Positions 40,612 to 64,000 of a DNA stretch of 64,000 nt are shown in pieces. The position numbers and the translations under genes were made by a program. Position 1 is the first letter of the stretch. Each line of letters begins with the position of its first letter. The notes beneath the pieces are model-generated. The model did no database searches, was not told where the DNA came from, and worked only from the letters and a program-made list of their open reading frames with translations. The stretch comes from Patescibacteria group bacterium. Lineage in GTDB: Bacteria > Patescibacteriota > Minisyncoccia > Phycocordibacterales > UBA2100. The stretch covers positions 28,422-92,421 of the forward strand of contig JBBTSD010000001.1 of NCBI GenBank assembly GCA_038064835.1. The letters are read 5' to 3'.

Positions 40612-41255
40612 TGAAACGATCTCGCATCGCTTGCATTATCTTTGATTTAGACCGGTGTATTTTTGACACCAGTTCCATGGGGCCAGAGGTGCTGGAGCCG
40701 ATACGAAAAGTAATCCGAGAGTCAAATCTTTCAGACACATGTAAAACCCAAGCGCAGGATTTATTACTCACCACCTCGCTCACTGATCTTGCTTGTGCTT
40801 GCGAGATTCCTGAATCAGTCGTTTCACAGATGCGCGCCGCGTATCGTTCCATGACGGTTCCGGCGCAAGCTCGTTCGTATGGAGATGAACAAGTGATAGC
40901 CCAACTGCCAGGTGAGAAAATTTTGGTGACCACTGGATTCGAACGGTTCCAGCGAGAAAAGATTGCACATACAGGTGTCACACGATTGTTCAGCATGATT
41001 GTCATTGACGCAGTGGACGATGTATCGATTCGGAAAGGAAAAGAAAAAATTTTCAGCAATCTGGCGCACGAACGAGCGCTTCCCATGGAAGCGATATGTG
41101 TGGTGGGTGATAGTCCTGATTCGGAGTTGGGTGCAGGAAAACGCTTGGGGATGGTCACGGTGCAGACACTTCGCCCAGGCGTTGTGCCGTGGGACGGTGC
41201 TGATTACCGCATCCAGAATCTGAGAGAATTGACGACAATTATTGAGGGTGCGTAA
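40611..41255 (+). CDS. HAD-superfamily hydrolase
   Basis: N-terminal IIFDLDRCIFDT (motif I-like) and C-terminal VVGDSPDSELGAGKRLGM (motif IV-like). Confidence 0.55.
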   Translation: MKRSRIACIIFDLDRCIFDTSSMGPEVLEPIRKVIRESNLSDTCKTQAQDLLLTTSLTDLACACEIPESVVSQMRAAYRSMTVPAQARSYGDEQVIAQLPGEKILVTTGFERFQREKIAHTGVTRLFSMIVIDAVDDVSIRKGKEKIFSNLAHERALPMEAICVVGDSPDSELGAGKRLGMVTVQTLRPGVVPWDGADYRIQNLRELTTIIEGA

Positions 41256-48320: not shown

Positions 48321-48713
48321 ATGGTGCGCGTAAAGATTATAGTTGCTCTGGCACTTGCAGTACTTTTGGGCGGATTCGTACTTCTTTTGTACTTGGCGCA
48401 AAGCAATGTGGCGCACAGCGTTGCTATGACAGATGATATGCAGGTGGCAATCGTACTTACACCAACCGGATATGAACCAAAAGAAGTGCGTGTAAAAAAG
48501 GGAACAACCGTTTTGTTTACCACTACCATCGGACATGCACATTGGCCATCGTCGGATTTGCATCCGTCGCACATGATTTACGCCGAGTTTGATCCGAAAC
48601 GACCACTAAAATCCGACGAGGCTTGGAGCTTTGGTTTTGACAAAGTGGGTACCTGGGGATTTCACGATCATATACGCGCCTATTTCACCGGGGTTATTTA
48701 TGTCGAAGAATAG
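48321..48713 (+). CDS. Membrane-anchored cupredoxin-like fold protein lacking the Cys copper ligand
   Basis: YEPKEVRVKKGTTVLFTTTIGHAHWP...FGFDKVGTWGFHDHIRAYFTGVIYV resembles a cupredoxin beta-sandwich with H/D/H where C/H/M would be. Confidence 0.45.
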   Translation: MVRVKIIVALALAVLLGGFVLLLYLAQSNVAHSVAMTDDMQVAIVLTPTGYEPKEVRVKKGTTVLFTTTIGHAHWPSSDLHPSHMIYAEFDPKRPLKSDEAWSFGFDKVGTWGFHDHIRAYFTGVIYVEE

Positions 48714-49914
48714 AATTCTGTTCTCTGGCGCAGGATGCTTCTTGCTTCTGTGTCTTGGGTGGCTTGTTTGGTCGTTCTTGGTGTCAGTATCGTCAAATAA
48801 TATATCGGCAATCACAGCTTGTGCCCAGGAATTTACCGGTCAATCAGAGCGGATAAATTGCTGGTATCGGTTGATTGAAAAAGAAATCATCAAAGATGGT
48901 GTGCCCGCAGGTATGCATGCCTTCACCTACATATATGACAACTATCCAGACTTTGTTTCAACAGGATGCCATGTGCATGCCCACAAAGTGGGAGACATGG
49001 TTTATTACGGCGTCTACTTGGCCGATCCTCGGCTCGAGGCACTTGAGTATCCCGATTCACTCACTGCGTGCGGCTACGGATTTTTTCACGGGTTTCTTGA
49101 ACACCTAATCCAAGATCATCCGACAACAAAATTTGTCACAGAAACATGTGAGTGGATGAGTGAGCGTCTGGAGGAAAGAATGCCCGCGATACGCACCATT
49201 TGCTATCACGGTTCCGGACATGGTTTTACTCTCGCTCAGGTAGAAAAAGTACCACAGGCGCAGTGGGGCGATCTGATTGCTTTCACTAAAGACCCGCTTG
49301 AAAAATGCGACGCTCTTTCCGTGCCGAGAGAGATTGAGCGAGAGGAGTGTCGCGAAGGCGTGTTCAATGTACTTATCAATTGGGCAGAGGGAGGTGAGTA
49401 TGGGTTTTCGTTTAATCGCGATAACCCGCTTGTGATTTGTGATGCTTTCGAGAAAAAGTGGCGACACGCATGCTATTACGAGTTTTCGCAAAAGCTGGAC
49501 CATATTGCACGAAGAGATGTGATGGAATTATGGCGGGTGGCAAATAAAATCAAAGACAGAGATGAGGCATCTGTCGTATTTCGTGTGGCCATGGCGGGCG
49601 CGGTTCAACAGACTATTGCCGACGGTACTTATATCGGCCTCACAAAGAAGTGTCTTTTGGCCGGCCCTCAAGTGGAGAACATGTGTATTGAAAGTATTGT
49701 GAATGGCCTATTTGAGCACGGTTCTCCGCGGAAAGAGCATGATAAGGCTCTCGCGTTTTGTATGGAAGAGTGGCTGAATGATGCCCAACGCACTCAATGT
49801 TATACGGCGGTTGCGACGCGGCTCTTGCGATTTCATACCAGAGAAGATGCTGATGATGATTGCAGAGACTTTCCCAAAGAGTATCAAAGCATGTGCCTTA
49901 GGGCTCGCCCATAA
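48703..49914 (+). CDS. Membrane-anchored Cys/His-rich hypothetical protein; a paralog lies at 63449-64000
   Basis: ATG at 48703 overlaps the upstream stop by 11 nt; conserved CHVHAHKVG and CGYGFFHG blocks. Confidence 0.5.
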   Translation, partial: SKNRILFSGAGCFLLLCLGWLVWSFLVSVSSNNISAITACAQEFTGQSERINCWYRLIEKEIIKDGVPAGMHAFTYIYDNYPDFVSTGCHVHAHKVGDMVYYGVYLADPRLEALEYPDSLTACGYGFFHGFLEHLIQDHPTTKFVTETCEWMSERLEERMPAIRTICYHGSGHGFTLAQVEKVPQAQWGDLIAFTKDPLEKCDALSVPREIEREECREGVFNVLINWAEGGEYGFSFNRDNPLVICDAFEKKWRHACYYEFSQKLDHIARRDVMELWRVANKIKDRDEASVVFRVAMAGAVQQTIADGTYIGLTKKCLLAGPQVENMCIESIVNGLFEHGSPRKEHDKALAFCMEEWLNDAQRTQCYTAVATRLLRFHTREDADDDCRDFPKEYQSMCLRARP

Positions 49915-50003: not shown

Positions 50004-50414
50004 ATGGCGACAATCAATCAACTCATAAAGAAAAACCGAAAGGACCCGGTGCGGCGTTCGCAGGTCATGGCACTCGGGCGCGGTTTTAATCGTCTCAAGA
50101 ATCGTCCGTCGTTCTACCCGTCTCCATTCAAGCGTGGTGTGTGCACCAAAGTAACCACCAAGACTCCTCGTAAGCCAAACTCTGCTATCCGCAAGATTGC
50201 GCGTGTGCGTTTGACAAACGGTATGGAAATCACCGCGTATATTCCTGGTGAAAAGCACACCCTGCAAGAGCACTCAGTGGTGTTGGTCCGCTCAGGTCGT
50301 GTTAAGGATGTTGGCTTGCGTTACACGGTTGTGCGTGGCAAGTTTGACGCCGCAGGTGTCGACGGGCGTCGTCGTGGCCGATCTCGCTATGGGGCCAAGA
50401 AGCCAAAGAAATAA
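50004..50414 (+). CDS. rpsL: 30S ribosomal protein S12
   Basis: [10 protein letters not shown]...[73 protein letters not shown]. Confidence 0.95.
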
Positions 50415-50438: not shown

Positions 50439-50900
50439 ATGCGCCGACCATTTAAAAAGAAGCATCGAGCTACTCCCGACCCTGTTTACGGTTCTCTACT
50501 CGTTTCCAAGCTCACCAACTATGTAATGGAGCGCGGCAAGAAAGACACTGCTCGTCGCGTTGTATACGCTATGCTCGAAGATCTCAAGAAAGAAGGTGAC
50601 CCCATTACTATCCTCGAGACGGCTATCAAGAATGTTGAGCCGGCAATGGAGGTGCGATCTCGTCGTGTGGGAGGAGCAAACTACCAAGTGCCTACCCCAG
50701 TGCGTCCTGAACGCCAGCTGGCCCTCTCTCTTCGCTGGATTATCGGCGCCGCTCGCGCAAAGAAAGGGACTCCTCTCGCACAAAAACTTTCCACAGAAAT
50801 TCTCGCGGCTCACAAAGGAACCGGAGAAGCGGTCGGCAAGCGCGACAACATGCACAAGATGGCCGAGGCCAACAAGGCATTTGCACACTTTGCGTGGTAA
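50439..50900 (+). CDS. rpsG: 30S ribosomal protein S7
   Basis: Full-length uS7 match (…ANYQVPTPVRPERQLALSLRWIIGAARAKKG…). Confidence 0.95.
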   Translation: MRRPFKKKHRATPDPVYGSLLVSKLTNYVMERGKKDTARRVVYAMLEDLKKEGDPITILETAIKNVEPAMEVRSRRVGGANYQVPTPVRPERQLALSLRWIIGAARAKKGTPLAQKLSTEILAAHKGTGEAVGKRDNMHKMAEANKAFAHFAW

Positions 50901-50927
50901 TACCATCGCCACTAGTCGAACGCTTTA

Positions 50928-50951
50928 GACACCTTCTTTTTCTTTGGTGTC
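50928..50951. terminator. Hairpin (GACACC-ttctttttcttt-GGTGTC) between the rpsG stop and the converging SagB-like gene
   Basis: A 6-bp stem with a large pyrimidine loop; weak. Confidence 0.3.
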
Positions 50952-50962
50952 GACGGTAATGC

Positions 50963-51679
50963 TCACAATTGGGTGATTTCCTTTTGTCGGGCCGCCAGCG
51001 CTCCGTACACCACCAGCTCTTCTTGGGGATCAATATCAAGCACTTTTTCAATTGCCTGGTGGTCGAGGCCTCCGAACGGGCGCAGGCGCACTCCGAGCGC
51101 TGTAGCAACGAGCGCCATGTTTTGCATGATATGACCCGCTTCAAGGAGGGCGAGCGGATACGCGAAGTCGTGGTACTTGCGCGAAGATTTTTCAAGGGAG
51201 GCAGTTAGAAGTAGTACATTCGCTCCTTGCAAAGACTCTGTTCGCGAGACATATGTCTCGACTTTTTCTTGTGTGGACAACGCCCACAGATGCTCGAGAG
51301 CATGCACATCAGGCCGGTAGTGAAAAACTGCACGCTGGAGTGTCTCGACGGAAAATGCGAGTAGATATGCTTCAATAGGATAGTACCCACCCCCAGAGGG
51401 ATATGGACGGCGTTTTCGTTCCGTGAGCTTCATCGCTCCGCCGAGCAGGTGTGAGATGTCCGAAAAAGAGAGTGGTGCGCACGCGGAGGGCATATCAGAG
51501 TTTCTCAATTCGAGCGCTCTGAAGAGGGATACTTCTGGATCAGAGAGGTGGTCCATTGGTACGAGCTCCATGCGCTCGTATCTCTTTGCCAGGCGTGTCT
51601 CGTGCAGATGTGCTGTTCCATGTGTAAAACGGCTGTCTTGAAAGTGTTGATGTATTTCCCGGTAAAGATTGTGAGGCAT
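50963..51679 (-). CDS. SagB-type (McbC-like) FMN-dependent dehydrogenase of the nitroreductase superfamily
   Basis: KRRPYPSGGGYYPIEAYL is the hallmark motif of SagB-type dehydrogenases. The likely start is at 51679 (MPHNLYRE...), 7 nt downstream of the YcaO stop; the ORF track extends it to 51796. Confidence 0.75.
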   Translation of the reverse strand: MPHNLYREIHQHFQDSRFTHGTAHLHETRLAKRYERMELVPMDHLSDPEVSLFRALELRNSDMPSACAPLSFSDISHLLGGAMKLTERKRRPYPSGGGYYPIEAYLLAFSVETLQRAVFHYRPDVHALEHLWALSTQEKVETYVSRTESLQGANVLLLTASLEKSSRKYHDFAYPLALLEAGHIMQNMALVATALGVRLRPFGGLDHQAIEKVLDIDPQEELVVYGALAARQKEITQL

Positions 51680-51686
51680 GACAGAG

Positions 51687-53216
51687 TTATGCAAACGGAT
51701 GGGGCTCCTCGGCGAAAGGAGTTTCTCGTGGAGTGTATCCGAAAAGTTTTGGAATTTCAGTGAGACGCGCACCACCAAGACAGGGAAAACGCTCATTGAT
51801 ATGCAAAGGTTGTAACTCGGGAATCACGACGAATTCCACATGCCATGGTGTCGGATTTTTCGGGGAGATGCCGAGCGGGACAGAGGCGCATCCATACCCA
51901 CGCTCTGTGCACCACCCTACGATTCTATCCAGATGTTCGTCTTTGGTGTCGTGTTCCCACATGGCTTGTACGGGCTTTTCCAGCACTCCATTGGTGAGAA
52001 ATGCGAGGCGCGCCGCGCGTTTTGTATCCGTCCAATAAACCGCGCGCTCGAAATGCTTGATGCGATGTGGCACGATTGCATCTACGCTGTAGAGGTGCCG
52101 CCACGAAGAGCGAATATTTTTTCGAATACGAAGTGCCTCGCGTATCGCATGTGCGGCCGCTTCCGACAAGCGCGCATGTACGCCAAGCCCGAGTACGACA
52201 GGAACCCCGCCAGGAGCATCATCTCGGATGACAGCGCAGACAACATGCGCAGGTGCATCCGTAGGGAGCTTGATAATATCCGCACGCAGACGATAGCGCT
52301 CCATCCGTTGCAGTAACAGCGAGAGCTCATCGGACTTGTGTGCCAAATAATCGAGCGCGATGCGTGGGCAGGTGAGCTGATTAAGCCACATGATCATAAA
52401 CGCATCGCGCTCGATTATCTCGAGCGCACCATTAAGAAGTGCAAATTCCCGTGTTGGTCCGGTAGCGAGCCCTGTAGTAATTCTGGGTCGTAGCATCGGC
52501 TCTCGTTTTTCCTGGAGATACTTTCCACTTGAAGTGATTTGTGCGGGAATATACATACGTGCGTTTGTTTTAAGGCAACGACCTCTAACCCATGCAAATG
52601 CTGAATCATGCGGTACTGCGGTGGAGCGCTGTGCTCGTTGCGCCCTAGAAAAACCCGCAAAAGAGGAAATGGGGAGGTGTCGCTTCTTGGCCATATCTTG
52701 TTCTGTGCTCCAGCACAGGCCCTGCATGTGTTCGGTGTCATAGCGCCACAGGTGTCTCTCCAGACATTCGGCAAGGGCGGAAGCCAGCGCCTGCGGGTCA
52801 GATGTCGCTGAAGACCCGCCGGCCGCCTCGTCCTTCGCGAATTGCGCGCTCCATGCGTGCATGTGTGGCTCGTCAGGCATGTGGCCGGTTTGTCGAATAC
52901 CGAGAAGTATTCCAGCATCTTGAAGATTACGCACAATAGGGCGAAGCGGCAGCATGTCGCTCTGAGAAAGACGAGTGGCGTCGCGTACCAGCTCGGCTCC
53001 AAACGAAGCCTCAACAGACTCCGCAAATGCCGCCCGTGCTTTTTCGAACACATTTCCCGAACGATACTCTGTAACGACTCGAGATACAGAGCGAAGTGTC
53101 ATGAGGGGAGTATACCAATGGGCAGATATCGTCGAGCATTGACATATCTCCGTAGCGGTTGTGTTCCGCCGGTTGTGGACACGATACCCTGATACCATGA
53201 CGCCATCTTCCGCCAT
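51687..53216 (-). CDS. YcaO-domain protein (standalone cyclodehydratase-type YcaO with a C-terminal PxPxP-like tail)
   Basis: YcaO motifs ALAECLERHLW and TTGLATGPTREFALLNGALEIIERDAFMIMW; the C-terminus is ...EEPHPFA. Confidence 0.8.
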   Translation of the reverse strand: MAEDGVMVSGYRVHNRRNTTATEICQCSTISAHWYTPLMTLRSVSRVVTEYRSGNVFEKARAAFAESVEASFGAELVRDATRLSQSDMLPLRPIVRNLQDAGILLGIRQTGHMPDEPHMHAWSAQFAKDEAAGGSSATSDPQALASALAECLERHLWRYDTEHMQGLCWSTEQDMAKKRHLPISSFAGFSRAQRAQRSTAVPHDSAFAWVRGRCLKTNARMYIPAQITSSGKYLQEKREPMLRPRITTGLATGPTREFALLNGALEIIERDAFMIMWLNQLTCPRIALDYLAHKSDELSLLLQRMERYRLRADIIKLPTDAPAHVVCAVIRDDAPGGVPVVLGLGVHARLSEAAAHAIREALRIRKNIRSSWRHLYSVDAIVPHRIKHFERAVYWTDTKRAARLAFLTNGVLEKPVQAMWEHDTKDEHLDRIVGWCTERGYGCASVPLGISPKNPTPWHVEFVVIPELQPLHINERFPCLGGARLTEIPKLFGYTPRETPFAEEPHPFA

Positions 53217-56200
53217 GAACCCTGATTCTCAAAGAACAAAAGCGTACAAGATTTCCGCACACCAAGATTCTTTGGCCGGACGCCCCGGCAAGGACACTGG
53301 CGCGGATACCGACTTGATTACTTCTAAAAACGAATGGACGGTGGCTCTGGCACATGCGCGCGCGGTGATCGAAGCAGAACTCCTCGGGAAAAAGGCACCA
53401 CAGTTTCCTTTCTCAAAGGCGCCACAGTTCCTGAGCCCGGGTACGGCAGGGGTGTGTATATGGGTTGGGGGCTCTCTCCGGGGTTCGCATATAGTCGAAG
53501 GCGCACTTTTGGGGAATGCAGTGAGCGAATCGGCGGCACAAACAGTGCAAGACCCTCGATTCAAACCGATTGCGGAAGCGGATAGTAAAAACATGAGAGT
53601 ACAGGTGAGTCAGATTTCTTCTGTGTGGGTACGCATTGATCCACGCACCGGGACGCTCGCGCACAATAAAGGGTATGCACTCGTGCACGGAGGGAAGACA
53701 GGGTGGTTTCTTCCGGAGGTTTTTAGCATACGGACATTTACCAGTATTTCACAGTTGGCACGAGCGCTGGCACGAGAAAAGTTGCATCTTCCGGAGGAAG
53801 TTGCATTCGGGAAAGATACCGAGTTGTATACATTCGAAGTATACGAGGTGGTGGAGTCTATGTGCGAGTCCGAGCTGTCAGTGGGCGGTGCTCAGACATA
53901 CCCCGTGCATCTCGATGGTCCAATACCTCGCGAAGCTCGCACTGATCGCGAGAGCTCCATCTCTCGGATGGTAGCGTATGCGGTACGCTGTTGTAACGAG
54001 GACGGCAGTATCACCTGTGCGCTATCGGAAGGGATCGCAGACGCTCGCTACGAATGGGGGAGAGCATTTTTTTCAATTGCTGCCATGGCCGAATATGCGC
54101 GCACAGCACCCTCCGCACTAACCAAGGCGGCTCATCGTGCGTATCACTACCATCGGTCACATCTTTTTGGGAAGCGTGGCGCACATCTTCCGGACACAGC
54201 GCTTTTGTATGCATACCTGGGGCACGCGGCGCTTTCCTTCGGTTTTGTAGACGATGCGCGAATGTGTTCCGAATATATTAAGGGGGTGGTCGAACGGGAA
54301 AGATTTTCTCCGATACCGTTCGGTCAAGCGGCGAGTTTCCTAAGCAGAATGATTCTGGTAGGTCTGGATATAAAAGCGCATGCCGCGGCGTACTGCTTGG
54401 CAACTCTTGCGCGCCATTTCGAAGAGGATACAAACAAGTCGACAGCGTCATATGCAGAACTTGCCACGGCAAGTGCCATCTTCTACAAAGCAACACAGAG
54501 TGAATGGGCGCTCGGTCTTGCCCGCATGACAGCGCGGTGGCTCATGAGCGAACAACTTTCTGACGGAGCGTTTAGAGGTTCGCAGTCGAGCACATCTGCA
54601 TATACACGAGGTACGGGGAAGGTAATCGAAGCGCTCGCCGAATACGCCCGTTCGTGCCCGCTTTCAGAAGACGAGCGCGCTCGCGTCGTCACCGCTATGG
54701 GTCGTGGCGAATCGTGGATGATGCGCATGCAGTATTCTGCAGAGAGTAGCTTTGCGCTATCAAAAACCTTTCGAGAGAAAGTGCAGGGGGGATTTCGTCA
54801 CGACTACTTCAGCAAAGATGCATGGCTTGATGCAGTGTGGCACTTCCTGCTTTACAAAGCGCGCCGGGAAAGCAATGACGAAAAGCGAGCACATGGTCAT
54901 CAGACGATAGAATTCTTGCCTCTGCGAAATGCCCCGCGTTTTTTTAAGGAGCACGGCGAAGATTCGCGTCTTCGCACCGACAAGTACGCTGCTCTGGGGT
55001 GGGCGTTCATGAAGAAGCTGGGTGTGGGGTCTGCAATTGAAAAATTATCCACTCGAGAGCTTCTGGATGCGTGGACAATTCTGCGACGAGCGCGCATCAC
55101 AGAGAGTGAGGTTGCGCACACTATGCGGTACATGGCGTTTCCGGACACGCCTGGATTTTTTGCGTGCCACCCAACTCTTTCCTATGAGCCTGGAAGCACC
55201 GACGGGAGGACAAAACAGCGCAGGTATGCTCATGGATTCAGTGAATCGTGGGAGCGCGCACTCGCACAGTCAGTGGGAGAAATGTATGAACGGTACTTTC
55301 TCTCGCTGTATAAGAGCAACGAGTTGCGCCTTGCGTCGGTAAATGAACTAAAGGCTGATCATGTGGCGCATCTCGACCCAGCATATCTGACTCGGCTTTC
55401 CGAATCACAAGTCAAGGCTCTCGGCTCTCGATCGTGGGACGAGAGTGTGCCGTTGCGCTGGGTGGAAGGAGTGCGGGTGAGTTCAGGCAAGAAAGTGCTT
55501 ATTCCTGCGCAACTCGTGTTTTGGAATTACTCGTGTGCGAATGACGAGGCAAGACTCTGCGAGAGCAATTCCAGCGGTCTGGGGGCAGCGGGAAGCTCTG
55601 CGGGGGCGCTTCTTGCCGGGCTACATGAAGTGTTGGAGCGGGATGCTTTTCTTGCGCACTGGCTCACTAAAACACCGCTAGAGCGCATTACTCTTGCGAG
55701 CGTGCCCGGAGAGAAATGTGCGCGCTTTGTCGACCGCGCGCGAAAGCATGGGGTTCGCATGAGTTTGTTTCGAGCAGGAACGACGGGAGGTATTGATGCA
55801 TTCTATGCGCTTCTTGAAGACGAGAGAGGTCGAGGAAATCCGCGTGTGGTGCTTGGCGGTTCCTGCAAATCGAATCCTGTGGCCGCGATTGAACGCGCCC
55901 TCGAGGAAGTGTGGTCAATATATTTCGCTGTGCGCGCAGAAGAGAAAGGCTCGTATGAACTGCTGGCCGAAGATTATGTGCCGTTCAAGAGCCCGCTTGC
56001 CATAGGCAAACGAGTGTCACTCTGGTCTCACCAAGATACCGCTCCTGAAATCTCCTTTCTTCTAAAAGTAAAAGAGCAAGACTTTAGTGTACCCTCGCGT
56101 ACTGGTACCAGGAACGCACATGAAGAGCTCCTCACAACTGTGGAAGACATTGAAAAGCAAGGGGTCGGCTACGAGGTGTTTGCGTACCATGCGGTGCACC

Positions 56201-56385
56201 CACTTCTCGCAGAGGCGGGGATATTTGCGACGCGCGTGATAGTCCCGGCGCTCATACCGCTCTACTATAGTGAACACATGGCACCGACACTGCTTACACA
56301 TCGACTTGCGCAGTGGAGCGCACAACAGGGTTTTGGGGACAAAAAGTGCGCTATTTCCAATGTGTTTCCACACCCGTACCCGTGA
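53161..56385 (+). CDS. 1074-aa fusion: AMMECR1-like N-domain (Cys->Ser in LRGCIG) + ~450-aa alpha-helical region + C-terminal YcaO domain ending PHPYP
   Basis: AMMECR1-like GVCIWVGGSLRGSHIVEGALLGNAVSESAAQTVQDPRFKPIAEAD...RVQVSQISS; YcaO motifs VGEMYERYFL and SSGLGAAGSSAGALLAGLHEVLERDAFLAHW. The true start is probably an internal ATG (~53197 or 53215), because the annotated 5' end overlaps the divergent YcaO gene. Confidence 0.75.
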   Translation: MFRRLWTRYPDTMTPSSAMNPDSQRTKAYKISAHQDSLAGRPGKDTGADTDLITSKNEWTVALAHARAVIEAELLGKKAPQFPFSKAPQFLSPGTAGVCIWVGGSLRGSHIVEGALLGNAVSESAAQTVQDPRFKPIAEADSKNMRVQVSQISSVWVRIDPRTGTLAHNKGYALVHGGKTGWFLPEVFSIRTFTSISQLARALAREKLHLPEEVAFGKDTELYTFEVYEVVESMCESELSVGGAQTYPVHLDGPIPREARTDRESSISRMVAYAVRCCNEDGSITCALSEGIADARYEWGRAFFSIAAMAEYARTAPSALTKAAHRAYHYHRSHLFGKRGAHLPDTALLYAYLGHAALSFGFVDDARMCSEYIKGVVERERFSPIPFGQAASFLSRMILVGLDIKAHAAAYCLATLARHFEEDTNKSTASYAELATASAIFYKATQSEWALGLARMTARWLMSEQLSDGAFRGSQSSTSAYTRGTGKVIEALAEYARSCPLSEDERARVVTAMGRGESWMMRMQYSAESSFALSKTFREKVQGGFRHDYFSKDAWLDAVWHFLLYKARRESNDEKRAHGHQTIEFLPLRNAPRFFKEHGEDSRLRTDKYAALGWAFMKKLGVGSAIEKLSTRELLDAWTILRRARITESEVAHTMRYMAFPDTPGFFACHPTLSYEPGSTDGRTKQRRYAHGFSESWERALAQSVGEMYERYFLSLYKSNELRLASVNELKADHVAHLDPAYLTRLSESQVKALGSRSWDESVPLRWVEGVRVSSGKKVLIPAQLVFWNYSCANDEARLCESNSSGLGAAGSSAGALLAGLHEVLERDAFLAHWLTKTPLERITLASVPGEKCARFVDRARKHGVRMSLFRAGTTGGIDAFYALLEDERGRGNPRVVLGGSCKSNPVAAIERALEEVWSIYFAVRAEEKGSYELLAEDYVPFKSPLAIGKRVSLWSHQDTAPEISFLLKVKEQDFSVPSRTGTRNAHEELLTTVEDIEKQGVGYEVFAYHAVHPLLAEAGIFATRVIVPALIPLYYSEHMAPTLLTHRLAQWSAQQGFGDKKCAISNVFPHPYP

Positions 56386-56470
56386 GACCTTTTCTAAAGT
56401 TCGTACACAACTTGTTGCGCAGATTTCAATTACATAGCGACACGCTGTTTATCCACACAGACAGTCAAGA

Positions 56471-56947
56471 GTGTTCGGAACGCGGTACTATGTGTGCATG
56501 GTTGCGGTCCAAGTATCAAAAGATTTTTTGAGGCGGGCTGGGTATGCGCTTTTGGTAATACTCGGTGTGGGTTTATCGTTAGGCGCCCTCTTGTTCCCTC
56601 GCGCATCCGGCACTTCACACGGGCTGACTGGAAAGGACACAGCCCATGCGGATGTCCCTGGTTGCGGAGGGGGAGGATGCGCTGAATCATGTGGTAGCTC
56701 ATGTGGTAGCTCATGCGACAGTTCATGCGACAGTTCATGCTCGTCATGCACGGCGTGTAGCACGGATGGGGGGTGTGATTCAGGGTGTTCATGTGATTGT
56801 GGTTGTGCTGGTGGGTGTGGAGGGGACTGTTCTGGTGGGTGTAGCGATGGGTGTGGCTCGGCTGATGGGTGTGGCTCGGCTGATGGGTGCGGGTGTGGAT
56901 GCTCCGAAGGTGGTGGAGGAGGTGAGGGCGAAGGAGAGGGCGCTTAG
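56471..56947 (+). CDS. Putative RiPP (TOMM-type) precursor: hydrophobic or signal-like leader + ~95-aa Cys/Ser/Gly/Asp-rich core (25+ Cys)
   Basis: The core is GCGGGGCAESCGSSCGSSCDSSCDSSCSSCTACSTDGGCDSGCSCDCGCAGGCGGDCSGGCSDGCGSADGCGSADGCGCGCSEGGGGGEGEGEGA. The alternative ATG is at 56498 (MVAVQVSKDFLRRAGYALLVILGVGLSLGALLF...). It sits immediately downstream of the YcaO fusion gene. Confidence 0.6.
   Translation: MFGTRYYVCMVAVQVSKDFLRRAGYALLVILGVGLSLGALLFPRASGTSHGLTGKDTAHADVPGCGGGGCAESCGSSCGSSCDSSCDSSCSSCTACSTDGGCDSGCSCDCGCAGGCGGDCSGGCSDGCGSADGCGSADGCGCGCSEGGGGGEGEGEGA
56686..56900 (+). repeat. Short in-frame tandem nucleotide repeats (12-18 nt units) inside the precursor core
   Basis: TCATGTGGTAGC x2, TCATGCGACAGT x2, GATGGGTGTGGCTCGGCT x2 plus a partial copy; these encode SCGS/SCDS/DGCGSA repeats. 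Confidence 0.7.
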
Positions 56948-56982
56948 TTAGCTTACGCCAAAAATTTCACTACACTAAATAT

Positions 56983-58104
56983 ATGCAAGCAGAAAGTTTG
57001 AAATCAATATATCGGGGAGTTTTCATAATCGCTTTTCTCGCAGTTTCTGTGGTCGCCTTCTATGTTCAATACGAGTTAAAAGGACAGAGTGCGATGTCTA
57101 AGGAGGAAATCCGCGGGGCAGAAGAGCTCGCGCTTCGTGGCCAATATGATAAGGCACTTGCGATGGCTCGGAATACAGCCAGTGCCGCCTCGGACCCTCG
57201 CAGTATCTTTGACGCGCGACTCACGGCCATATTTTCTGCTTTTATGGGAGGGGATACTGACGCCAGGCTTGCAGCTGTGCGAGTCGCGAAAGAGCAGTAT
57301 GCGATTGCCGCCGAGCCGCGTGAGCGCTCATACATAATCGGTATGCTCATTGGTTTTATTACAATAGATAGAAACCCAAAAGTGTTCGGAGAGGTATTTT
57401 CAGGAGATATCTTTGGCGCACTTCGCGCAAAAGATGGAGATCCTTTGGTTTCTCTAAAGAATCTTGCAGAGCTTTCTATAGTCGAAAACCCAACATCAGG
57501 AGCATATCTCCAGATAGCGACGCTCGACGCCGCTCGTATTCTAGGCGCCAAAGCTCTCAAGCTTAGCAAGGAAGATCGGCAAGCCCATGCTAAAAACATA
57601 CTCACATTGCTCGAATCCGCGGCGGCTGTTTTTTCCGATGAGCGCACGCATATTCCCCGTACACTCTTCGGCAAGCTTCAGTTCGCGAGTTACTACAGCC
57701 GGACAGGATATCTGTACGGTGCGGTGGCACTAGTTATCCCTGATTATTTCAAGCAATCGGAGGAGGCGTATCAGACGCTCTATGCACTTCGCGCAAAAGA
57801 AGAGGGTGGGAAGCAAGGCCTGATTTCGTCATGGGTTCCTCATGCGTATCTCAATCATGCACTGTATCTTGATTCGGTCGGGGGTGTTTCTAGGCGCGGA
57901 GATATGCAAGAAGTACTCAGCTCGCTGGTTGGTTTAGTGCAAGCCGATCGGGCTGTGCACGAAAAATCCTTCCTGGGTTTCTTGCGCAACGCGAAAGAAA
58001 TGGAAGCGAAGTATGGTTCGTATGACGCCAAGAACCTACGCCACCTTGCGACCTTATCTCCAGAGCTCAAAGATTTCCTAGTCCAAGAAGGGTGGATATT
58101 CTAA
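56983..58104 (+). CDS. Membrane-anchored alpha-helical hypothetical protein; last gene of the inserted island
   Basis: N-terminal TM (VFIIAFLAVSVVAFYV); the remainder is predicted helical; no family recognised. Confidence 0.5.
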   Translation: MQAESLKSIYRGVFIIAFLAVSVVAFYVQYELKGQSAMSKEEIRGAEELALRGQYDKALAMARNTASAASDPRSIFDARLTAIFSAFMGGDTDARLAAVRVAKEQYAIAAEPRERSYIIGMLIGFITIDRNPKVFGEVFSGDIFGALRAKDGDPLVSLKNLAELSIVENPTSGAYLQIATLDAARILGAKALKLSKEDRQAHAKNILTLLESAAAVFSDERTHIPRTLFGKLQFASYYSRTGYLYGAVALVIPDYFKQSEEAYQTLYALRAKEEGGKQGLISSWVPHAYLNHALYLDSVGGVSRRGDMQEVLSSLVGLVQADRAVHEKSFLGFLRNAKEMEAKYGSYDAKNLRHLATLSPELKDFLVQEGWIF

Positions 58105-58126
58105 AAGTATCCTGCGCGATTATTTT

Positions 58127-58154
58127 TTGCAATTACGCTGTAGTCTGTTATAGT
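58127..58154 (+). promoter_or_regulatory. Sigma70-like promoter (TTGCAA-16 nt-TATAGT) upstream of fusA, followed by a small UUCG-loop hairpin + T-run (58160-58185)
   Basis: Hexamers seen directly; it would give fusA its own promoter downstream of the insertion. Confidence 0.3.
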
Positions 58155-58208
58155 TCGGTGGTCGCTTCGGCGGTTTTTATTTTAACTAAGTATCTGTTTT
58201 ATTCCCCT

Positions 58209-60353
58209 ATGAATCGAGATTATCCACTGGAGAGGGTGCGCAACTTCGGCATCATCGCACACATCGACGCGGGCAAGACCACCACCTCTGAGCGTATTCT
58301 CTTTTACACGGGTGAATCTCATAAAATCGGTGAAGTGCACGACGGTAACACCGTGACCGACTGGATGGAACAGGAGCGCGAACGAGGTATCACGATTACC
58401 GCCGCCGCAATCACTTGTTTCTGGAATCCTTCGTACATGGGCACCGACCTCTCATTCAAACATCGTTTCAATATCATCGATACTCCAGGCCACATCGACT
58501 TCACTTCTGAAGTACAACGATCAATGCGCGTCCTCGACGGCGCGATTGTCGTGTTTGACGGTGTTGCTGGTGTAGAGCCACAGACCGAGACCAACTGGCG
58601 CTACGCCGAAGATGCAAAAGTACCCCGTCTTTGTTTCGTGAATAAGCTTGACCGCACAGGCGCATCTTTTGATAAATCGTTTGGCATGATTCGCGAGCGG
58701 CTGTCGAAAAACGCGGTGCGTATGCAAATTCCTATTGGCGAAGAAGATGCGCTTGAAGGCGTCATTAATCTTATAGATATGCAGGCGTTTCGTTTTGAGG
58801 GAGACAAGGGGCGCGTCGTCATTCCTATGCCGGTACCCGAATCTCACAAAGCAGAGGCAGAGAAGTACCGTGCCGAACTCATCGAAGCGATCGTCGAGCA
58901 CGACGAGGTGCTTATGACAGGATACCTTGAGGGGAAGGAACCGACCGTCCCTGTGCTTAAAGCCACGCTCAGGAAGGCAGTTATCGAAAATAAAATCTTC
59001 CCCACCTTCTGTGGTTCCGCACTTAAAAATGTTGGAGTCCAGCTGGTCCTTGATGGTGTTGTGGACTACCTCCCGACACCGCTTGACCTTCCGCCAGCAA
59101 AGGGAATCCATCCTGATACAGGCGAAGTGATCGAACGCAAACCAGCCGACTCTGAGCCATTCTCTGCGCTTATTTTTAAACTCCAGACTGACCCGTTTGT
59201 AGGTCAGCTCTCATTCTTTCGCGTATATTCAGGTCAACTAGAGGTGGGAAGCTATGTCTACAATGCATCAAATGGCACCAAGGAGCGTGTTGGCCGTATG
59301 GTTCGCCTCCAGGCCGACAAACGAGAAGAAATAAAAAAGGTGTTCACTGGTGAAATCGCGGCACTCTTGGGCGCAAAGGATGCCAAGATTGGGCACACCA
59401 TTTGTGATGAAAAGAATCCAATAATTCTCGAAGAGATTAAATTCCGTCAGCCAGTTCTCTCTGCTCGTATTGAGCCAAAGACCAAGGGCGATCAAGAAAA
59501 GATGGGTATGGCATTAGCAAAACTTTCCGACGAAGATCCAACATTCCGTATTCGCAGTGACGAGGAAACAGGCGACACCATCGTGTCCGGTATGGGCGAG
59601 CTCCATCTCGATATCATTGTTGATCGGATGCGTCGCGAGTTTGGCGTTGAGGCAACACTCGGCAAGCCGCAAGTCGCTTACCGCGAGACCATTCAGGGTA
59701 GTGCTGAAGTTGAAAATAAATACATCAAGCAGACCGGAGGTCGCGGGCAGTACGGCCATGTCAAAATTCGCGTCAAACCACTCGAGCCATTGGTGGAAGG
59801 CAAGAAGATTCCTGCAAATACGACTCGTGAAGACCACTTTGAGTTCATTAATACCGTTAAAGGAGGCGCAATTCCTCAGGAATATATTCCTGCTGTCGAG
59901 AAGGGTATTCGTGAAGCGCTTGAGCGCGGAGTCCTTGCGGGTTATCCGGTTGTCGATGTCTCTGTCGAGTTGTTTGACGGGTCGTTTCATGAAGTCGACT
60001 CATCCGAAATTGCCTTCAAGATTGCCGGTTCCATGGCGTTTCAGGAGGCTGCACGACAGGCACGACTTGCGCTCCTTGAGCCAATTATGAAAATCGAAGT
60101 TGTTACCCCGGACAAATTCATGGGCGATGTTACGGGTAATCTCAATGGCAAGCGCGGACAAGTACAATCTATCGACGATCGCTCAGGCGGCCTCAAAGTT
60201 ATTATTGCGCATGTACCGCTCTCTGAAATGTTTGGGTACACCACAGCACTTCGTTCGATGACTGAAGGCCGTGCGACATCCATGATGGAATTCGATCATT
60301 ATGCAACGGTACCAAAGAATGTAGCAGATGAGGTTGTTGCAAGTAGAAAGTAG
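58209..60353 (+). CDS. fusA: Elongation factor G
   Basis: MNRDYPLERVRNFGIIAHIDAGKTTTSERILFYTG...; full-length EF-G. The ORF track opens at 58092; the true ATG is at 58209. Confidence 0.95.
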   Translation: MNRDYPLERVRNFGIIAHIDAGKTTTSERILFYTGESHKIGEVHDGNTVTDWMEQERERGITITAAAITCFWNPSYMGTDLSFKHRFNIIDTPGHIDFTSEVQRSMRVLDGAIVVFDGVAGVEPQTETNWRYAEDAKVPRLCFVNKLDRTGASFDKSFGMIRERLSKNAVRMQIPIGEEDALEGVINLIDMQAFRFEGDKGRVVIPMPVPESHKAEAEKYRAELIEAIVEHDEVLMTGYLEGKEPTVPVLKATLRKAVIENKIFPTFCGSALKNVGVQLVLDGVVDYLPTPLDLPPAKGIHPDTGEVIERKPADSEPFSALIFKLQTDPFVGQLSFFRVYSGQLEVGSYVYNASNGTKERVGRMVRLQADKREEIKKVFTGEIAALLGAKDAKIGHTICDEKNPIILEEIKFRQPVLSARIEPKTKGDQEKMGMALAKLSDEDPTFRIRSDEETGDTIVSGMGELHLDIIVDRMRREFGVEATLGKPQVAYRETIQGSAEVENKYIKQTGGRGQYGHVKIRVKPLEPLVEGKKIPANTTREDHFEFINTVKGGAIPQEYIPAVEKGIREALERGVLAGYPVVDVSVELFDGSFHEVDSSEIAFKIAGSMAFQEAARQARLALLEPIMKIEVVTPDKFMGDVTGNLNGKRGQVQSIDDRSGGLKVIIAHVPLSEMFGYTTALRSMTEGRATSMMEFDHYATVPKNVADEVVASRK

Positions 60354-60370: not shown

Positions 60371-61999
60371 CTACGGTGTTGCCGTGGTGATGCAATGCAG
60401 AGCGTTATTAAAGGTCGGGACATAGGTCCGGCTCGTCTCTTGATCATACAAAATCTTGCCAACAATCCTTTCTGGGAACTGGATGTGACCTAGTTCTTTT
60501 CCTGTTGTAGGGTCGATTTTGTACAAGACACCGTCGTTCGAACCTATAAACAACGAACCCTTGATGAGGGCAGGGCTACTAAAGATTCTCCCGCGTGTCA
60601 AAAATTTCCAATGCAGTTTTTTATGCACGGTGTCGTAGGAGTAGACAAACTTATCGAGTGAGTTGATGAATAGTGTATCGCCAGTCCATAGTGGGGTGGA
60701 GTATATCGCCTCGAGTGTTTCAAATGTATCTGAGATGGCTAGAGTCTTGGTGTCAATAATATGACACTTCTTGTCGAATGCTCCGAAGGCGACTTTCGAT
60801 CCATCAGATTTTTCTGCAAACGATGCACGAATCGGCGCGCCGATAGTATGCTCCTGTAGTTGTTCGCCTGTTTTCGCACGGTACATTCGGACAATCCCAT
60901 CATTAGAGCCACAGAAGAGCAGATTATTTTTTTCAGACACATAGGGAGAGCAGTGGGTAAGACCGGTGTGCTGACCACGCCACCGTTCTTCTCCTGTCTC
61001 TGGGTCAAGTGCTACAACGGCGCCTCGTTTTTTCCAGAGACCAAATTCGAGACCAATGTACAGTAGGTTATTTTTTGTGGAAACGGCAGGAGAAGATCCG
61101 ATCCAGTCAGCATCCATAAATACCCACTTTGTTTTGCCTGTTTTTGCATCGAGTGCGTACAGATTGCCGTCGTACGCACCAAAGTACACGATATCGTTGA
61201 ATACCAGGGGTGAAGAATAGATCATTTTCCCCTTGTCTCCAAAACGGACCGTGTGGGTCCAGAGAGTAGAACCGTTTTGTTTATTGATACAGTAAAATAC
61301 GCCCGAATCAGTACCAAAAAGTAATGTGTCCCCATGCATTACCGGTGTCGACTTGGGGACAACATTTTTGTAATTCACTGAGGTGGGAGAAGTGGTGAAT
61401 GTCCAATGATGGGTAAATGGGAGTGGTTGTAGCTCGCGTACATTTTCAAAATTCCTGACACCCAACGACTCTTGGAAATCGTTGAGTTCGAAAAGGGTGA
61501 CAAGGCGGATGCCATTTTGTGTCAGAAAATCGTAAAACGAAGTATCTCGGAAACGCACAAGGCAAAAAATTGCCTCGACCTGCAATCCCGCCTCCCGCAA
61601 TGTGGCGATCTGCTTCTCTACAGACTTCCCGCTATTCAAAATGTCGTCTACCAGAATGATGGGCTCTTGTGTAGGTGATCCTTCAATGGACTTGTGTAAG
61701 TCGTGTTTCTTCCTGCCTTTGCGTATAAAAAGACCATTTGCCCTAATGTTGCGTGTTTCAGCAGAAAAAACCAGGGTGGTCAAAAGAGGGATGGATGCTG
61801 ATTCAAGGCCGCATACTTGGAGGGTTTGCTTGTCTGGAAACGCCTCGAAAAAAGCCGTCGCATATACATCCATAAATTCCTTCGTCATGCTGACATTTCG
61901 AAAATCAAAAATCCATCGCTCCTCGCCTGTGTCTTGGAACCGTGAAAAAGTCTTTTGCTCAATCAGTTTCTTTAATGCCGCATGTCGTGGAGAGCTCAT
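60371..61999 (-). CDS. Fusion of a type-I phosphoribosyltransferase-like domain and a PQQ-like beta-propeller repeat domain
   Basis: PRPP-binding-like EPIILVDDILNSGKS; the C-terminal half has repeated G.LYALDA.TGK..W / ALDPETGEERW PQQ-type blades. Confidence 0.55.
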   Translation of the reverse strand: MSSPRHAALKKLIEQKTFSRFQDTGEERWIFDFRNVSMTKEFMDVYATAFFEAFPDKQTLQVCGLESASIPLLTTLVFSAETRNIRANGLFIRKGRKKHDLHKSIEGSPTQEPIILVDDILNSGKSVEKQIATLREAGLQVEAIFCLVRFRDTSFYDFLTQNGIRLVTLFELNDFQESLGVRNFENVRELQPLPFTHHWTFTTSPTSVNYKNVVPKSTPVMHGDTLLFGTDSGVFYCINKQNGSTLWTHTVRFGDKGKMIYSSPLVFNDIVYFGAYDGNLYALDAKTGKTKWVFMDADWIGSSPAVSTKNNLLYIGLEFGLWKKRGAVVALDPETGEERWRGQHTGLTHCSPYVSEKNNLLFCGSNDGIVRMYRAKTGEQLQEHTIGAPIRASFAEKSDGSKVAFGAFDKKCHIIDTKTLAISDTFETLEAIYSTPLWTGDTLFINSLDKFVYSYDTVHKKLHWKFLTRGRIFSSPALIKGSLFIGSNDGVLYKIDPTTGKELGHIQFPERIVGKILYDQETSRTYVPTFNNALHCITTATP

Positions 62000-63492
62000 T
62001 GTCTTTTGAAGGTTGCGTACAGCACTGCGCTACAGGCACCCAGGATCGATAGAATCCACAAAAGCCAATATCCCGATACCAGGTTCTCAAGGAGTTTTTC
62101 GTTTTTTATAAGGTCGGGAGAGACTTTTATCTGCGGGCTGATATCGTACGCAAATCCATTTTTAAATATGGGGGTATCAAGGACCTGGGCGTTGTCGGTA
62201 CGAATCCATTCGTTATGTGCAAATGGACGATATTCGAGGACACACACATCCTCAACATCAACAATCCTTTCATATTTCTCACCGTTGATGGAGTGGTCGA
62301 ATGTCCATGAAATTCGCGCAACAGAGTCGTCCCGCATGCATTTTGTTTTCAGGGGGAACCAGTAGCGATAGGGGTCGCAGCGATTATTGGCGACATGATT
62401 TTCTCGAGCAAGGACAATTGGCTCGGTGTTGCCAGTGCTATAGACAGTGGCTTTCGAGAAGCATTGATGGTTTGCTTCAAACATGTACATGCCGTAGTAG
62501 TTTCCCTCAAGTGTTTTTTTCTGATCTCCAGGGATAAGGATCCCCGTGAGTTGCCCCGCCAATAAGAAAAGAAGGAATAGGTACCCGAGTAAAGTATTCC
62601 GCGTTATTCTTTTAATGTGGAAGTGTCCCTGTTGTGAAAACAAGATAAAGAGGGCGGGGATCGAGATTGCGATATAGCGGTAGTTCACAATAATACCCGA
62701 ATAGATGTGGAAGAGGAGGAAATAGGTGAGCGCAGCGGTCTGAAGCAGCCTTCTATTTGAGAGAAGGAACCAGCTACCAACCATTTGCATCACGATCACG
62801 ATATTCGTAAAGAAGGGAAGAATTGCATGATTAAACAAGGGTGCTCCGGTAAAGAGCGAGTTGAAGTAGTTGGCAAAAATCCAGCCACCATCAATTTTTA
62901 TACTTGAGGCCAATACATACAGAAATACAAAAGTGATTTTTGCAAAATACTCTTTTTCGCGCATGAACAGCCATACGAATGCGAGCGCCATGTCGTAATA
63001 ATCAAAATTTCCTGTCAGGCCATAGGTAAAGAAAAATCCGACGATTACTTTCCAGATAAGACAGGAAAGGATGACGACATGAGCAGAAGTCCAATCCTTG
63101 CGGTATGCCGCATAGACACCGTAGCTTAAGGCGAGGAATAGGAGTAGGTAGAATGCGCTCTGACTGTATCCATAGGGAAGTGACTCGAGAAAAAGGTATT
63201 CGCCACAGGATGGAAAATATGGTGGGCAGACATGGAGGCCATTTTGATAAGTAGAGATGCTAATGAAATTCTTTTCAACCCACCCGAAAAAAGTAATGAA
63301 AAAAGAGAGACTTAGAGCATAAAAGAGTAGCTGAAGGACAGGGCTACTTTCAATCTCCTGAATAGCAAAGAACTGGTAATATCTTCTCTTTAAATTGAAC
63401 ACCATGAGTATGATAGTATAGGCAAGTCGTCCCTCAAGCAAAGTGCCTATGCTTAGTCGAAAAGAAGTTGCATTTATACTACTGGTCATCAT
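61996..63492 (-). CDS. Polytopic integral membrane protein (~10 TM) with a C-terminal soluble Cys-containing domain; possibly HTTM/VKGC-like (unverified)
   Basis: A long hydrophobic N-terminal two-thirds; no motif confirmed. The start may be an internal Met (~63408), because the annotated 5' end overlaps the divergent gene. Confidence 0.45.
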   Translation of the reverse strand: MMTSSINATSFRLSIGTLLEGRLAYTIILMVFNLKRRYYQFFAIQEIESSPVLQLLFYALSLSFFITFFGWVEKNFISISTYQNGLHVCPPYFPSCGEYLFLESLPYGYSQSAFYLLLFLALSYGVYAAYRKDWTSAHVVILSCLIWKVIVGFFFTYGLTGNFDYYDMALAFVWLFMREKEYFAKITFVFLYVLASSIKIDGGWIFANYFNSLFTGAPLFNHAILPFFTNIVIVMQMVGSWFLLSNRRLLQTAALTYFLLFHIYSGIIVNYRYIAISIPALFILFSQQGHFHIKRITRNTLLGYLFLLFLLAGQLTGILIPGDQKKTLEGNYYGMYMFEANHQCFSKATVYSTGNTEPIVLARENHVANNRCDPYRYWFPLKTKCMRDDSVARISWTFDHSINGEKYERIVDVEDVCVLEYRPFAHNEWIRTDNAQVLDTPIFKNGFAYDISPQIKVSPDLIKNEKLLENLVSGYWLLWILSILGACSAVLYATFKRQ

Positions 63493-64000
63493 CTCGTCTT
63501 TTGCAGGTCACCAGTATGTCCAAGAGCTACGGACAAAGAACATAGCAGATTTCTACACCATCATCGAAAACCAAGAGAAGATTAAGGATGATGTTCCGAT
63601 CACTCCTGAAGACTTCTCAGCAATTCAACAGTGCGGGAGGGTTGCAAAAAGTAGCGGCGCCAGCATGGAAGAGTGCGCGCGTGATTTTTATGATAAGTAC
63701 ACCATGAAGCACGGTGGAGAGGCGGCATTTGCGCACCTGGCTCGACTCCAAAAGGAGCATCCCGATCTACTGCCAAGTTGCCATTACATCTCCCATGGTA
63801 TTGGGCATGCAGTTTTGCGCCAGAATAATAACGACCCTTACAAAGCTTTTGCTTTTATGCAGTCAGGAGGATATTTCAAGAATGTAGTTACCTGCGGGAA
63901 CGGCTTTTTCCACGGTGTTATCGAAGAAATTGCAAAAAAAATTAAGGACAAAGATCAGCTTGTTGAGGTGTTGGGTTCTGTATGCGCAAATGAGAAGATA
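63449..64000 (+). CDS. 3'-partial gene: membrane-anchored Cys/His-rich protein, paralog of the 48703-49914 gene
   Basis: I translated frame 63449 by hand: MLSRKEVAFILLVIISSFAGHQ...SCHYISHGIGHAV...TCGNGFFHGVIEEI..., which parallels CHVHAHKVG...CGYGFFHGFLEHL. It runs off the window end and is not in the ORF track. Confidence 0.4.
   Translation, partial: MLSRKEVAFILLVIISSFAGHQYVQELRTKNIADFYTIIENQEKIKDDVPITPEDFSAIQQCGRVAKSSGASMEECARDFYDKYTMKHGGEAAFAHLARLQKEHPDLLPSCHYISHGIGHAVLRQNNNDPYKAFAFMQSGGYFKNVVTCGNGFFHGVIEEIAKKIKDKDQLVEVLGSVCANEKI

Follow-up and report, generated by a model that had tools for sequence, protein, structure and literature searches.

Why should the normally contiguous str operon of a Patescibacteria group bacterium hold, between rpsG and fusA, five genes that look like the makings of a modified peptide? 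We addressed this question in a 64-kb stretch of a metagenome-assembled genome (MAG) (assembly GCA_038064835.1, contig JBBTSD010000001.1; hereafter the window, to whose positions the coordinates refer), in which the region under study spans 50901-58208. An earlier note on this DNA had interpreted the five genes as a thiazole/oxazole-modified microcin (TOMM) or linear azole peptide (LAP) island inserted into the operon. We find instead that a peptide-maturation system conserved in Patescibacteria (Parcubacteria/Paceibacterota) is present here in the form it takes in one lineage, and that the region is not a foreign island. At a probability that we would put near 60%, this is an azole-type system made up of a precursor peptide, two YcaO enzymes, a SagB-type dehydrogenase, an AMMECR1-toroid protein, and a transmembrane (TM)-anchored, TPR-like partner.

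All five genes placed by the earlier note between the end of rpsG (50900) and the start of fusA (58209) were present, namely, those for a SagB-type dehydrogenase, a YcaO, an AMMECR1/YcaO fusion, a Cys-rich open reading frame (ORF), and a membrane-anchored helical protein. Hidden Markov model searches supported the enzyme domains, with PF02624, TIGR03605, and PF01871 all matched and the latter two above their curated cutoffs. On the minus strand, the SagB-type FMN dehydrogenase (50963-51679, 238 aa) is followed by YcaO1 (51687-53102, 471 aa); the longest ORFs of these two genes, reaching 51796 and 53216, respectively, are overlapping extensions, and the lengths given by gene calls were used instead. 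The plus strand then carries a fusion of AMMECR1, an (alpha/alpha)6 toroid, and YcaO2 (53215-56385, 1056 aa), the precursor ORF (56498-56947, 149 aa), and p373 (56983-58104), which encodes 373 aa with an N-terminal TM segment.

The enzymes are those expected of azole chemistry in several respects. SagB matched PF00881 (3e-15) and passed the TIGR03605 cutoff of 78.4 bits with 112.9 bits, and its motif SRKYHDFAYPLALLEAGH follows the family-wide KYGxRGYRxxLLEAGH, in which the K-Y motif is kept. YcaO1 and YcaO2 matched PF02624 at 1e-42 and 5e-49, respectively, and among the YcaO models the SagD family model TIGR03604 (187.1 and 179.6 bits) led by about 120 bits. The ExxER and ExxERD motifs (E29/E32/R33 and E145/R149/D150) were invariant across 18 family YcaOs, both window copies included. 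The C-terminal consensus of the family is PHPFP, YcaO2 ending in FPHPYP and YcaO1 in EEPHPFA with the final Pro lost; a PxPxP C-terminus is typical of azoline-forming YcaOs, as Dunbar and colleagues are said to have reported in 2014. Two subclades of family YcaOs were resolved, type 1 adjoining SagB and type 2 either adjoining or fused to the AMMECR1-toroid module, and among the loci examined the window was the only one in which both types occurred together. Orthologue-like YcaO1 genes were found in L035, L037, and L038 (L-numbers denote the compared loci or genomes). Within the YcaO1 coding region we also observed an inverted repeat (52347-52418, minus strand) whose 19-bp arms match perfectly across a 34-nt spacer, predicted to fold as an RNA hairpin of -48.1 kcal/mol (z = -7.0). 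The arms code for IIERDA and PRIALDY, and the repeat is missing in the YcaO1 homologues of L035, L037, and L008.

The presumed substrate is encoded next to these enzymes. From its probable ATG start at 56498 (an alternative GTG lies at 56471), the precursor consists, in order, of a basic N-terminus, the hydrophobic helix YALLVILGVGLSLGALLF, an 18-aa linker, the junction A-H-A-D-V-P (56642-56659), and a core (56651-56944). The 98 core residues include 22 Cys, 32 Gly, 21 Ser/Thr, and 15 Asp/Glu with no Lys or Arg, giving a net charge of -15, and the gene contains internal repeats of 12-24 nt. Public gene calls, both for this MAG and for Logan assemblies, place a gene in another frame (56652-56951, plus strand) whose product of 99-101 aa is His/Val-rich. 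Homologous peptides encoded beside homologues of the neighboring genes in other genomes match the Cys-rich frame, which is therefore the real one, and the deposited frame is wrong. With such an annotation in place, automated mining for peptides made on the ribosome and then modified post-translationally (RiPPs) would miss the precursor.

The precursor family comprised 22 copies, one of them truncated at a contig end, and all share the basic N-terminus, a hydrophobic helix of about 14-25 residues, and a linker of 13-35 residues. The junction follows the consensus [V/I]-P-x-A-x-A-D-V-P, with Ala at -1 in 22/22 copies, Asp at +1 in 21/22, and Ala or Val at -3. The tails are rich in Gly, Ser, Asp, and Glu and nearly devoid of Lys and Arg, with net charges of -2 to -15; most carry two Cys near the end, against 22 in the window copy. 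The copies thus have a basic n-region, a hydrophobic segment, and, 13-35 residues after that segment, an invariant A-x-A with D as the next residue. The N-terminus resembles a signal anchor, which is at odds with a classical LAP leader. Cores encoded within 1.5 kb of a YcaO gene held 2-22 Cys (median 4) and the others 0-2, a difference supported by a Mann-Whitney U test (p = 1e-4, uncorrected for phylogeny).

Three domains make up the fusion protein: AMMECR1 (about 53350-53841), a toroid of the all-helical (alpha/alpha)6 type that we term X (about 53947-54870), and YcaO2 (about 55234-56382). The first scored 38.9 bits with PF01871 (cutoff, 25) and matched the solved structures 1zq7 and 1vaj; the toroid, about 310 residues long, had no family match, and a fusion of AMMECR1 to a six-hairpin toroid seems to be an undescribed architecture. 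Sequence searches of the PDB with the island proteins returned, beyond YcaO, the AMMECR1 domain and one TPR motif only. Word-index protein searches gave only seven matches for the fusion protein and five for a 23-sequence AMMECR1-X alignment, so that sizing the family took an exhaustive profile search; at E<=1e-30 this yielded 269 clusters at 50% identity. AMMECR1-X was adjacent to YcaO in seven loci and fused to it in four independent proteins, which by the Rosetta-stone argument indicates a functional link. Canonical AMMECR1 has Cys in its LRGCIG motif; at that site of the corresponding G-x-LRG-S motif, Ser was found in 81 of the 91 members in which the motif could be located. The family thus shares PF01871 with the AMMECR1 of AmmeMemoRadiSam systems but differs from it in this Ser, in the toroid fusion, and in its surroundings, as no Memo or radical-SAM neighbor was present at any locus compared. 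With TIGR04335, the fusion protein of the window scored 36 bits against a cutoff of 99. The literature searched held no relevant paper joining YcaO with AMMECR1 or AMMECR1 with RiPPs. AMMECR1-X/YcaO family matches outside Patescibacteria were L024, a 7-Mb contig labelled delta proteobacterium in which the toroid is present only in part and is fused to YcaO, and L029, a Bdellovibrionales MAG; they could reflect horizontal transfer or binning error.

The last of the five proteins, p373, combines its N-terminal TM helix with an all-alpha, TPR-like ectodomain, in which the PDB search recovered the single TPR motif. A single-sequence AlphaFold2 model was all-helical at low confidence (pLDDT 56). 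The family alignment revealed no invariant catalytic residues and a conserved C-terminal PEFKxFLxxxGW, and most p373-like genes have a precursor gene directly upstream.

When one genome per species was scanned for the pattern of the AMMECR1-X alignment, we found 24 other loci with the gene set, in at least 24 other genomes that are nearly all Patescibacteria. All-against-all clustering of the ORFs from AMMECR1-X loci identified the recurrent partners, which were a p373-like TM/TPR-like protein (16 loci), an orotate-phosphoribosyltransferase (PRTase)-like/beta-propeller fusion (15), a Cys-rich exported protein (13), a TM-TPR protein (12), SagB (11), a TM-rhodanese (5), a TM-DsbA-like protein (4), a PaaK-like ligase (4), and a methyltransferase (3). 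None of rpsL, rpsG, and fusA was present within 10 kb of any of the 24 scanned loci. The gene set is therefore at home in the phylum and, outside the clade of the window, away from the str operon.

The operon itself was next compared in relatives. Proteins labelled Candidatus Kaiserbacteria share 86% identity with the window EF-G, and those labelled Pacebacteria share 81%. In the closest relatives, L033 and L034 (EF-G 86%), small ORFs unrelated to one another fill about 1.1 kb between rpsG and fusA, fn3/Gly-rich genes take up 5-7 kb between fusA and tuf, together with a toxin-antitoxin pair in L033, and neither interval has a YcaO. In L033 (12097-12886), the HigB/RHH pair comes after fusA, and behind the pair lies a second copy of the fusA 3' end, 45 aa long; this looks like an insertion footprint at the fusA-tuf junction. 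In L035, L037, and L038 (EF-G 81%), rpsG and fusA are close, and the fusA-tuf interval holds CH340 (minus strand), YcaO (minus), an 84-aa precursor, p380, and SagB (minus); the L035 precursor contains AHADVPSCDSCSSCTACGAC. The outgroup L039 (EF-G 74%) has one 203-aa ORF between rpsG and fusA, and its fusA and tuf are contiguous. The inner order YcaO1 (minus), precursor (plus), p373 (plus) is common to the window and to L035, L037, and L038, which indicates that the module has been resident in the operon for some time and was rearranged relative to fusA. Because unrelated genes occupy the same junctions in the closest relatives, the rpsG-fusA and fusA-tuf junctions look like cargo sites.

These comparisons bear on how the genes came to interrupt the operon. 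A recently acquired mobile genomic island would account for the broken contiguity, all the more since the outgroup has a single ORF at one junction and nothing at the other, and the earlier note had proposed an insertion while seeing no integrase, tRNA, or flanking direct repeats. Our domain, tRNA, and repeat searches likewise found none of these, and Rfam gave no match anywhere in the window. Moreover, the GC content of the island (0.529, against 0.521 for the window) and its tetranucleotide usage are native, the same inner gene order occurs in the same operon of a sister clade, and the system is typical of the phylum. Recent acquisition is thus very improbable. The proposed insertion is not supported, given this native composition, the occurrence of the set in at least 24 other genomes, and the members of the system that lie beyond fusA.

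A second idea suggested by the position is that the YcaOs modify a neighboring ribosomal protein or EF-G, their genes adjoining rpsL, rpsG, and fusA. For E. coli YcaO, candidate roles in the thioamidation of uL16 and in modifying uS12 have been under discussion (PMC7550191). Yet the family YcaOs are SagD-like and not E. coli-like, a dedicated Cys-rich substrate is present, 9 of 17 family YcaO genes lie within 1.5 kb of a small precursor gene, and outside this clade no family YcaO is near a ribosomal protein gene, so we give this explanation hardly any credence. The hint of a ribosomal target that the earlier note drew from the operon location fared no better, given the 24 or more loci away from ribosomal genes and the unrelated cargo at the junctions of the nearest relatives. 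Nothing ties the peptide to the ribosome functionally.

We infer from these gene products that azoles form on the core, and the following sequence of events can be proposed. In the cytoplasm, the YcaOs would cyclodehydrate core Cys, and possibly Ser, to azolines in an ATP-dependent reaction, and SagB would oxidize the azolines to azoles (thiazoles). The AMMECR1-toroid would replace an E1/ThiF-type partner, either presenting the substrate or modifying it further. The modified peptide would then be inserted or exported by the general Sec/YidC route by means of its own N-terminal helix, and might stay at the cell surface or be released by a signal-peptidase-type cut after A-x-A. Outside the cell, the p373 ectodomain could act on the peptide as a holder, chaperone, or receptor.

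Several observations weigh against this scheme. Both YcaOs fall short of the TIGR03604 trusted cutoff of 219.25 bits, and both are about equally far (E ~1e-7) from the solved structures of azoline- and thioamide-forming YcaOs, which are too distant for the chemistry to be assigned from them. No E1-like (SagC/McbB) or Ocin-ThiF partner was found among the domains of the island proteins, and the N-terminal extensions gave no Pfam match to an RRE/PqqD-like domain even at E<=10. The L032 precursor has no Cys at all, and a spacing of 13-35 residues between the hydrophobic helix and A-x-A is long for a classical signal-peptidase I substrate. Furthermore, in several loci that encode the peptide, p373, and AMMECR1-X (L015, a complete 617-kb chromosome, L023, L025, and L031), neither YcaO nor SagB lies within 10 kb. 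It follows that the peptide has a YcaO-independent role and that AMMECR1-X cannot be a YcaO partner alone; the YcaO/SagB pair seems to be an optional addition to a wider peptide system. Finally, what the peptide does is a guess: it is likely a self-used envelope peptide rather than a ribosome-targeting antibiotic, possibly involved in metal or redox handling. A metal role is, speculatively, hinted at by the acidic thiol-rich cores, by DsbA-like and rhodanese neighbors elsewhere, and by a cupredoxin-like protein (p130) and a Cys/His-rich (CH) family described below.

The loci that lack a nearby YcaO also speak for an unmodified Cys-rich envelope peptide, metallothionein-like or disulfide-bonded, with YcaO and SagB engaged in other chemistry such as thioamidation or amidine formation. 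Such a peptide would fit typical cores with two Cys, the DsbA-like protein also encoded in L015, L019, and L023, and the equal distance of the YcaOs from the thioamide-forming MJ1094. On the other hand, the Cys count rises specifically where a YcaO adjoins, a SagB dehydrogenase is sensible only downstream of azoline formation, the PxPxP-type C-terminus is conserved, and the island proteins contain no TfuA by domain searches (TIGR03266, the McrA-type equivalog, scored 65 bits against a cutoff of 365). We therefore regard an unmodified peptide as unlikely and retain azole formation as the preferred reading. As to the lacking partner, no ThiF-like sequence was detected across the 64-kb window or the compared loci searched for this purpose. 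In L037 (603-1301) and L038 (619-1299), a short gene for a ThiF/MoeB-family adenylyltransferase adjoins comEC, about 9 kb upstream of fusA. It was considered as the missing partner and rejected, as the window has a HAD hydrolase (40611-41255) at the counterpart position and no ThiF-like sequence.

Clusters of this general kind are already known, since Sharrar et al. 2020 (PMC7298704) reported antiSMASH predictions of LAPs in the candidate phyla radiation, with 110 clusters in 93 genomes of Parcubacteria and Microgenomates that combine YcaO and nitroreductase genes with a precursor of about 84 aa. The present cluster very probably belongs to the kind predicted there. Those clusters are predictions, presented without signal-anchor precursors, AMMECR1-toroid, p373, PRTase/beta-propeller, or a str-operon position; the signal-anchor precursor family, the two protein partners AMMECR1-toroid and p373, and residence in the str operon appear to be undescribed.

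Comparison with characterized TOMM/LAP systems (microcin B17, streptolysin S, heterocycloanthracin, klebsazolicin, and phazolicin) showed a PxPxP-type YcaO, a K-Y SagB, and a Gly/Ser/Cys core on both sides. The TOMM/LAP logic of the earlier note thus holds for the YcaO motifs and C-terminal tail, SagB, and the Cys/Ser/Gly core, and it fails for the signal-anchor leader. Unlike those systems, the window has two YcaOs of two subclades with SagD scores under the cutoff, an AMMECR1-toroid fused or adjacent to YcaO, a leader that ends in A-x-A-D-V-P, and no E1-like/Ocin-ThiF partner, ABC exporter, immunity gene, or leader peptidase that we could find. The earlier note had rightly called this architecture unusual, and our domain searches extended the lack of a dedicated leader peptidase and ABC exporter from the island to the conserved neighborhood. 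A classical secreted LAP antibiotic resembling klebsazolicin, phazolicin, or microcin B17 could nonetheless give the str position a meaning, through a ribosome or elongation-factor target, co-regulation, or self-protection. The cores of microcin B17 and heterocycloanthracin are Gly/Ser/Cys-rich and resemble the one found here, and the module is present in the str operon of four related genomes at two different junctions. Against an antibiotic stand the missing exporter, immunity gene, and leader peptidase in the island, the signal-anchor leader, the at least 24 other genomes that carry the system away from ribosomal protein genes, and the unrelated cargo at the same junctions in the nearest relatives. 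Broad conservation in tiny genomes and the use of both junctions within a single Paceibacterota clade also point to a physiological role, which makes an antibiotic rather improbable.

Other RiPPs offer partial parallels to the azole-type system that we favor. Bottromycin clusters also contain two YcaOs without an E1/ThiF partner; in contrast, their precursor has a follower peptide and no TM segment, one YcaO makes a macroamidine, and the accessory genes are unrelated. A precedent is provided by the bufferins (PMC11626156), Sec-exported, Cys-heterocyclized RiPPs for copper handling. They share with the present system a long precursor, the lack of a dedicated exporter, and apparent self-use, along with an N-terminal export signal and cytoplasmic Cys heterocyclization, both of which are here only predicted. 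Bufferins are small folded proteins with canonical Sec signal peptides, in which MNIO/DUF2063 pairs form 5-thiooxazoles, whereas the present system has YcaO/SagB, an acidic low-complexity tail, and a hydrophobic segment resembling a TM anchor. Domain searches of the island proteins found neither an MNIO (DUF692) enzyme nor a DUF2063 partner.

Gene-content comparison with the other loci further revealed that fusA (58209-60353, plus strand; TIGR00484, 1017 bits) is flanked on both sides by genes of the same peptide system. Beyond it, on the minus strand, lies a gene that joins an orotate-PRTase-like domain to a PQQ/BamB-type beta-propeller (60371-61999; TIGR00336, 57.8 bits, under its cutoff), homologues of which share a locus with AMMECR1-X in the 15 loci counted above and are usually directly adjacent to it. 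The next gene (61996-63405, minus strand) overlaps the stop codon of the beta-propeller gene; its product, a polytopic membrane protein, is 469-498 aa long and matched no family. The 5' part of CH410, a Cys/His-rich exported protein, then runs off the window end (63449-64000, plus strand). Downstream of the window and before tuf, the genome encodes a second precursor (101 aa, ASADVP junction) and a second p373-like protein (424 aa), followed by CH400, a PemK toxin-antitoxin pair, and then tuf and rpsJ. The PemK-type toxin and a small upstream ORF lie just upstream of tuf (4486-5062 of L036, the stretch of the window's own genome beyond the window), and a second PRTase/beta-propeller copy is found beyond rpsJ (L036 1-1640).

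The CH family is TM-anchored, its invariant residues including 12 Cys together with 4 His (H-x3-H and C-x-H-x3-H), and three paralogues surround the str operon of the window: CH427, CH410, and CH400. CH427 (48700-49914) follows p130 (48321-48713), which encodes a 130-aa protein that is weakly cupredoxin-like (amicyanin-like, E = 1.2e-3); both are on the plus strand upstream of rpsL (50004-50414, plus), which with rpsG (50439-50900, plus; TIGR01029, 182.9 bits) makes up the upstream part of the operon. Family coordinates are 48321-49914 (plus) for p130 and CH427 in the window, L003 20235-21467, L036 5793-6995, and L035 12633-13658. In L035 and L038, the gene of the paralogue CH340 and that of YcaO overlap by 4 bp; in L037, the two are immediate neighbors.

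Two further observations concern the window. A promoter-like site with a TG-extended -10 element (58126-58154) lies 55 nt before fusA and is followed by a small terminator-like hairpin (whole feature, 58126-58175); fusA may have gained its own promoter after separation from rpsG. Elsewhere, a single ORF of 8109 aa (34-24363, plus strand) occupies over a third of the sequence.

These findings matter first for the genomes concerned. Many Patescibacteria, with tiny genomes and almost no characterized specialized metabolism, spend several kb on this gene set, and more than 10 kb in some loci. In the clade of the window, the rpsL-rpsG-fusA-tuf string, supposed to be inviolable, accommodates kilobases of cargo at two of its junctions, a point of importance for annotation by synteny and for models of operons in the candidate phyla radiation. 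If the proposed model holds, it would describe a RiPP pathway that uses the general export route with an unprecedented AMMECR1-toroid partner, extending what is known of substrate recognition by YcaO enzymes and giving a testable function to AMMECR1, an as yet uncharacterized domain whose conservation extends from archaea to humans. A bolder and doubtful, though possible, version would make the AMMECR1-toroid a new class of YcaO partner or co-enzyme that takes the place of the E1/ThiF-type proteins bearing an RRE (RiPP recognition element). Together with the PRTase/propeller and the TPR-like ectoprotein, it would form a vertically inherited envelope system whose products, acidic peptides bearing azoles and exported by Sec, would be tethered to the membrane or set free and would serve the cell itself, for instance in bufferin-like metal handling or host attachment. 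If this were true, it would provide the first biochemical context for the AMMECR1 domain and a new RiPP class, of which the window copy would be an extreme elaboration, with 22 Cys and two YcaOs, lodged in the str operon.

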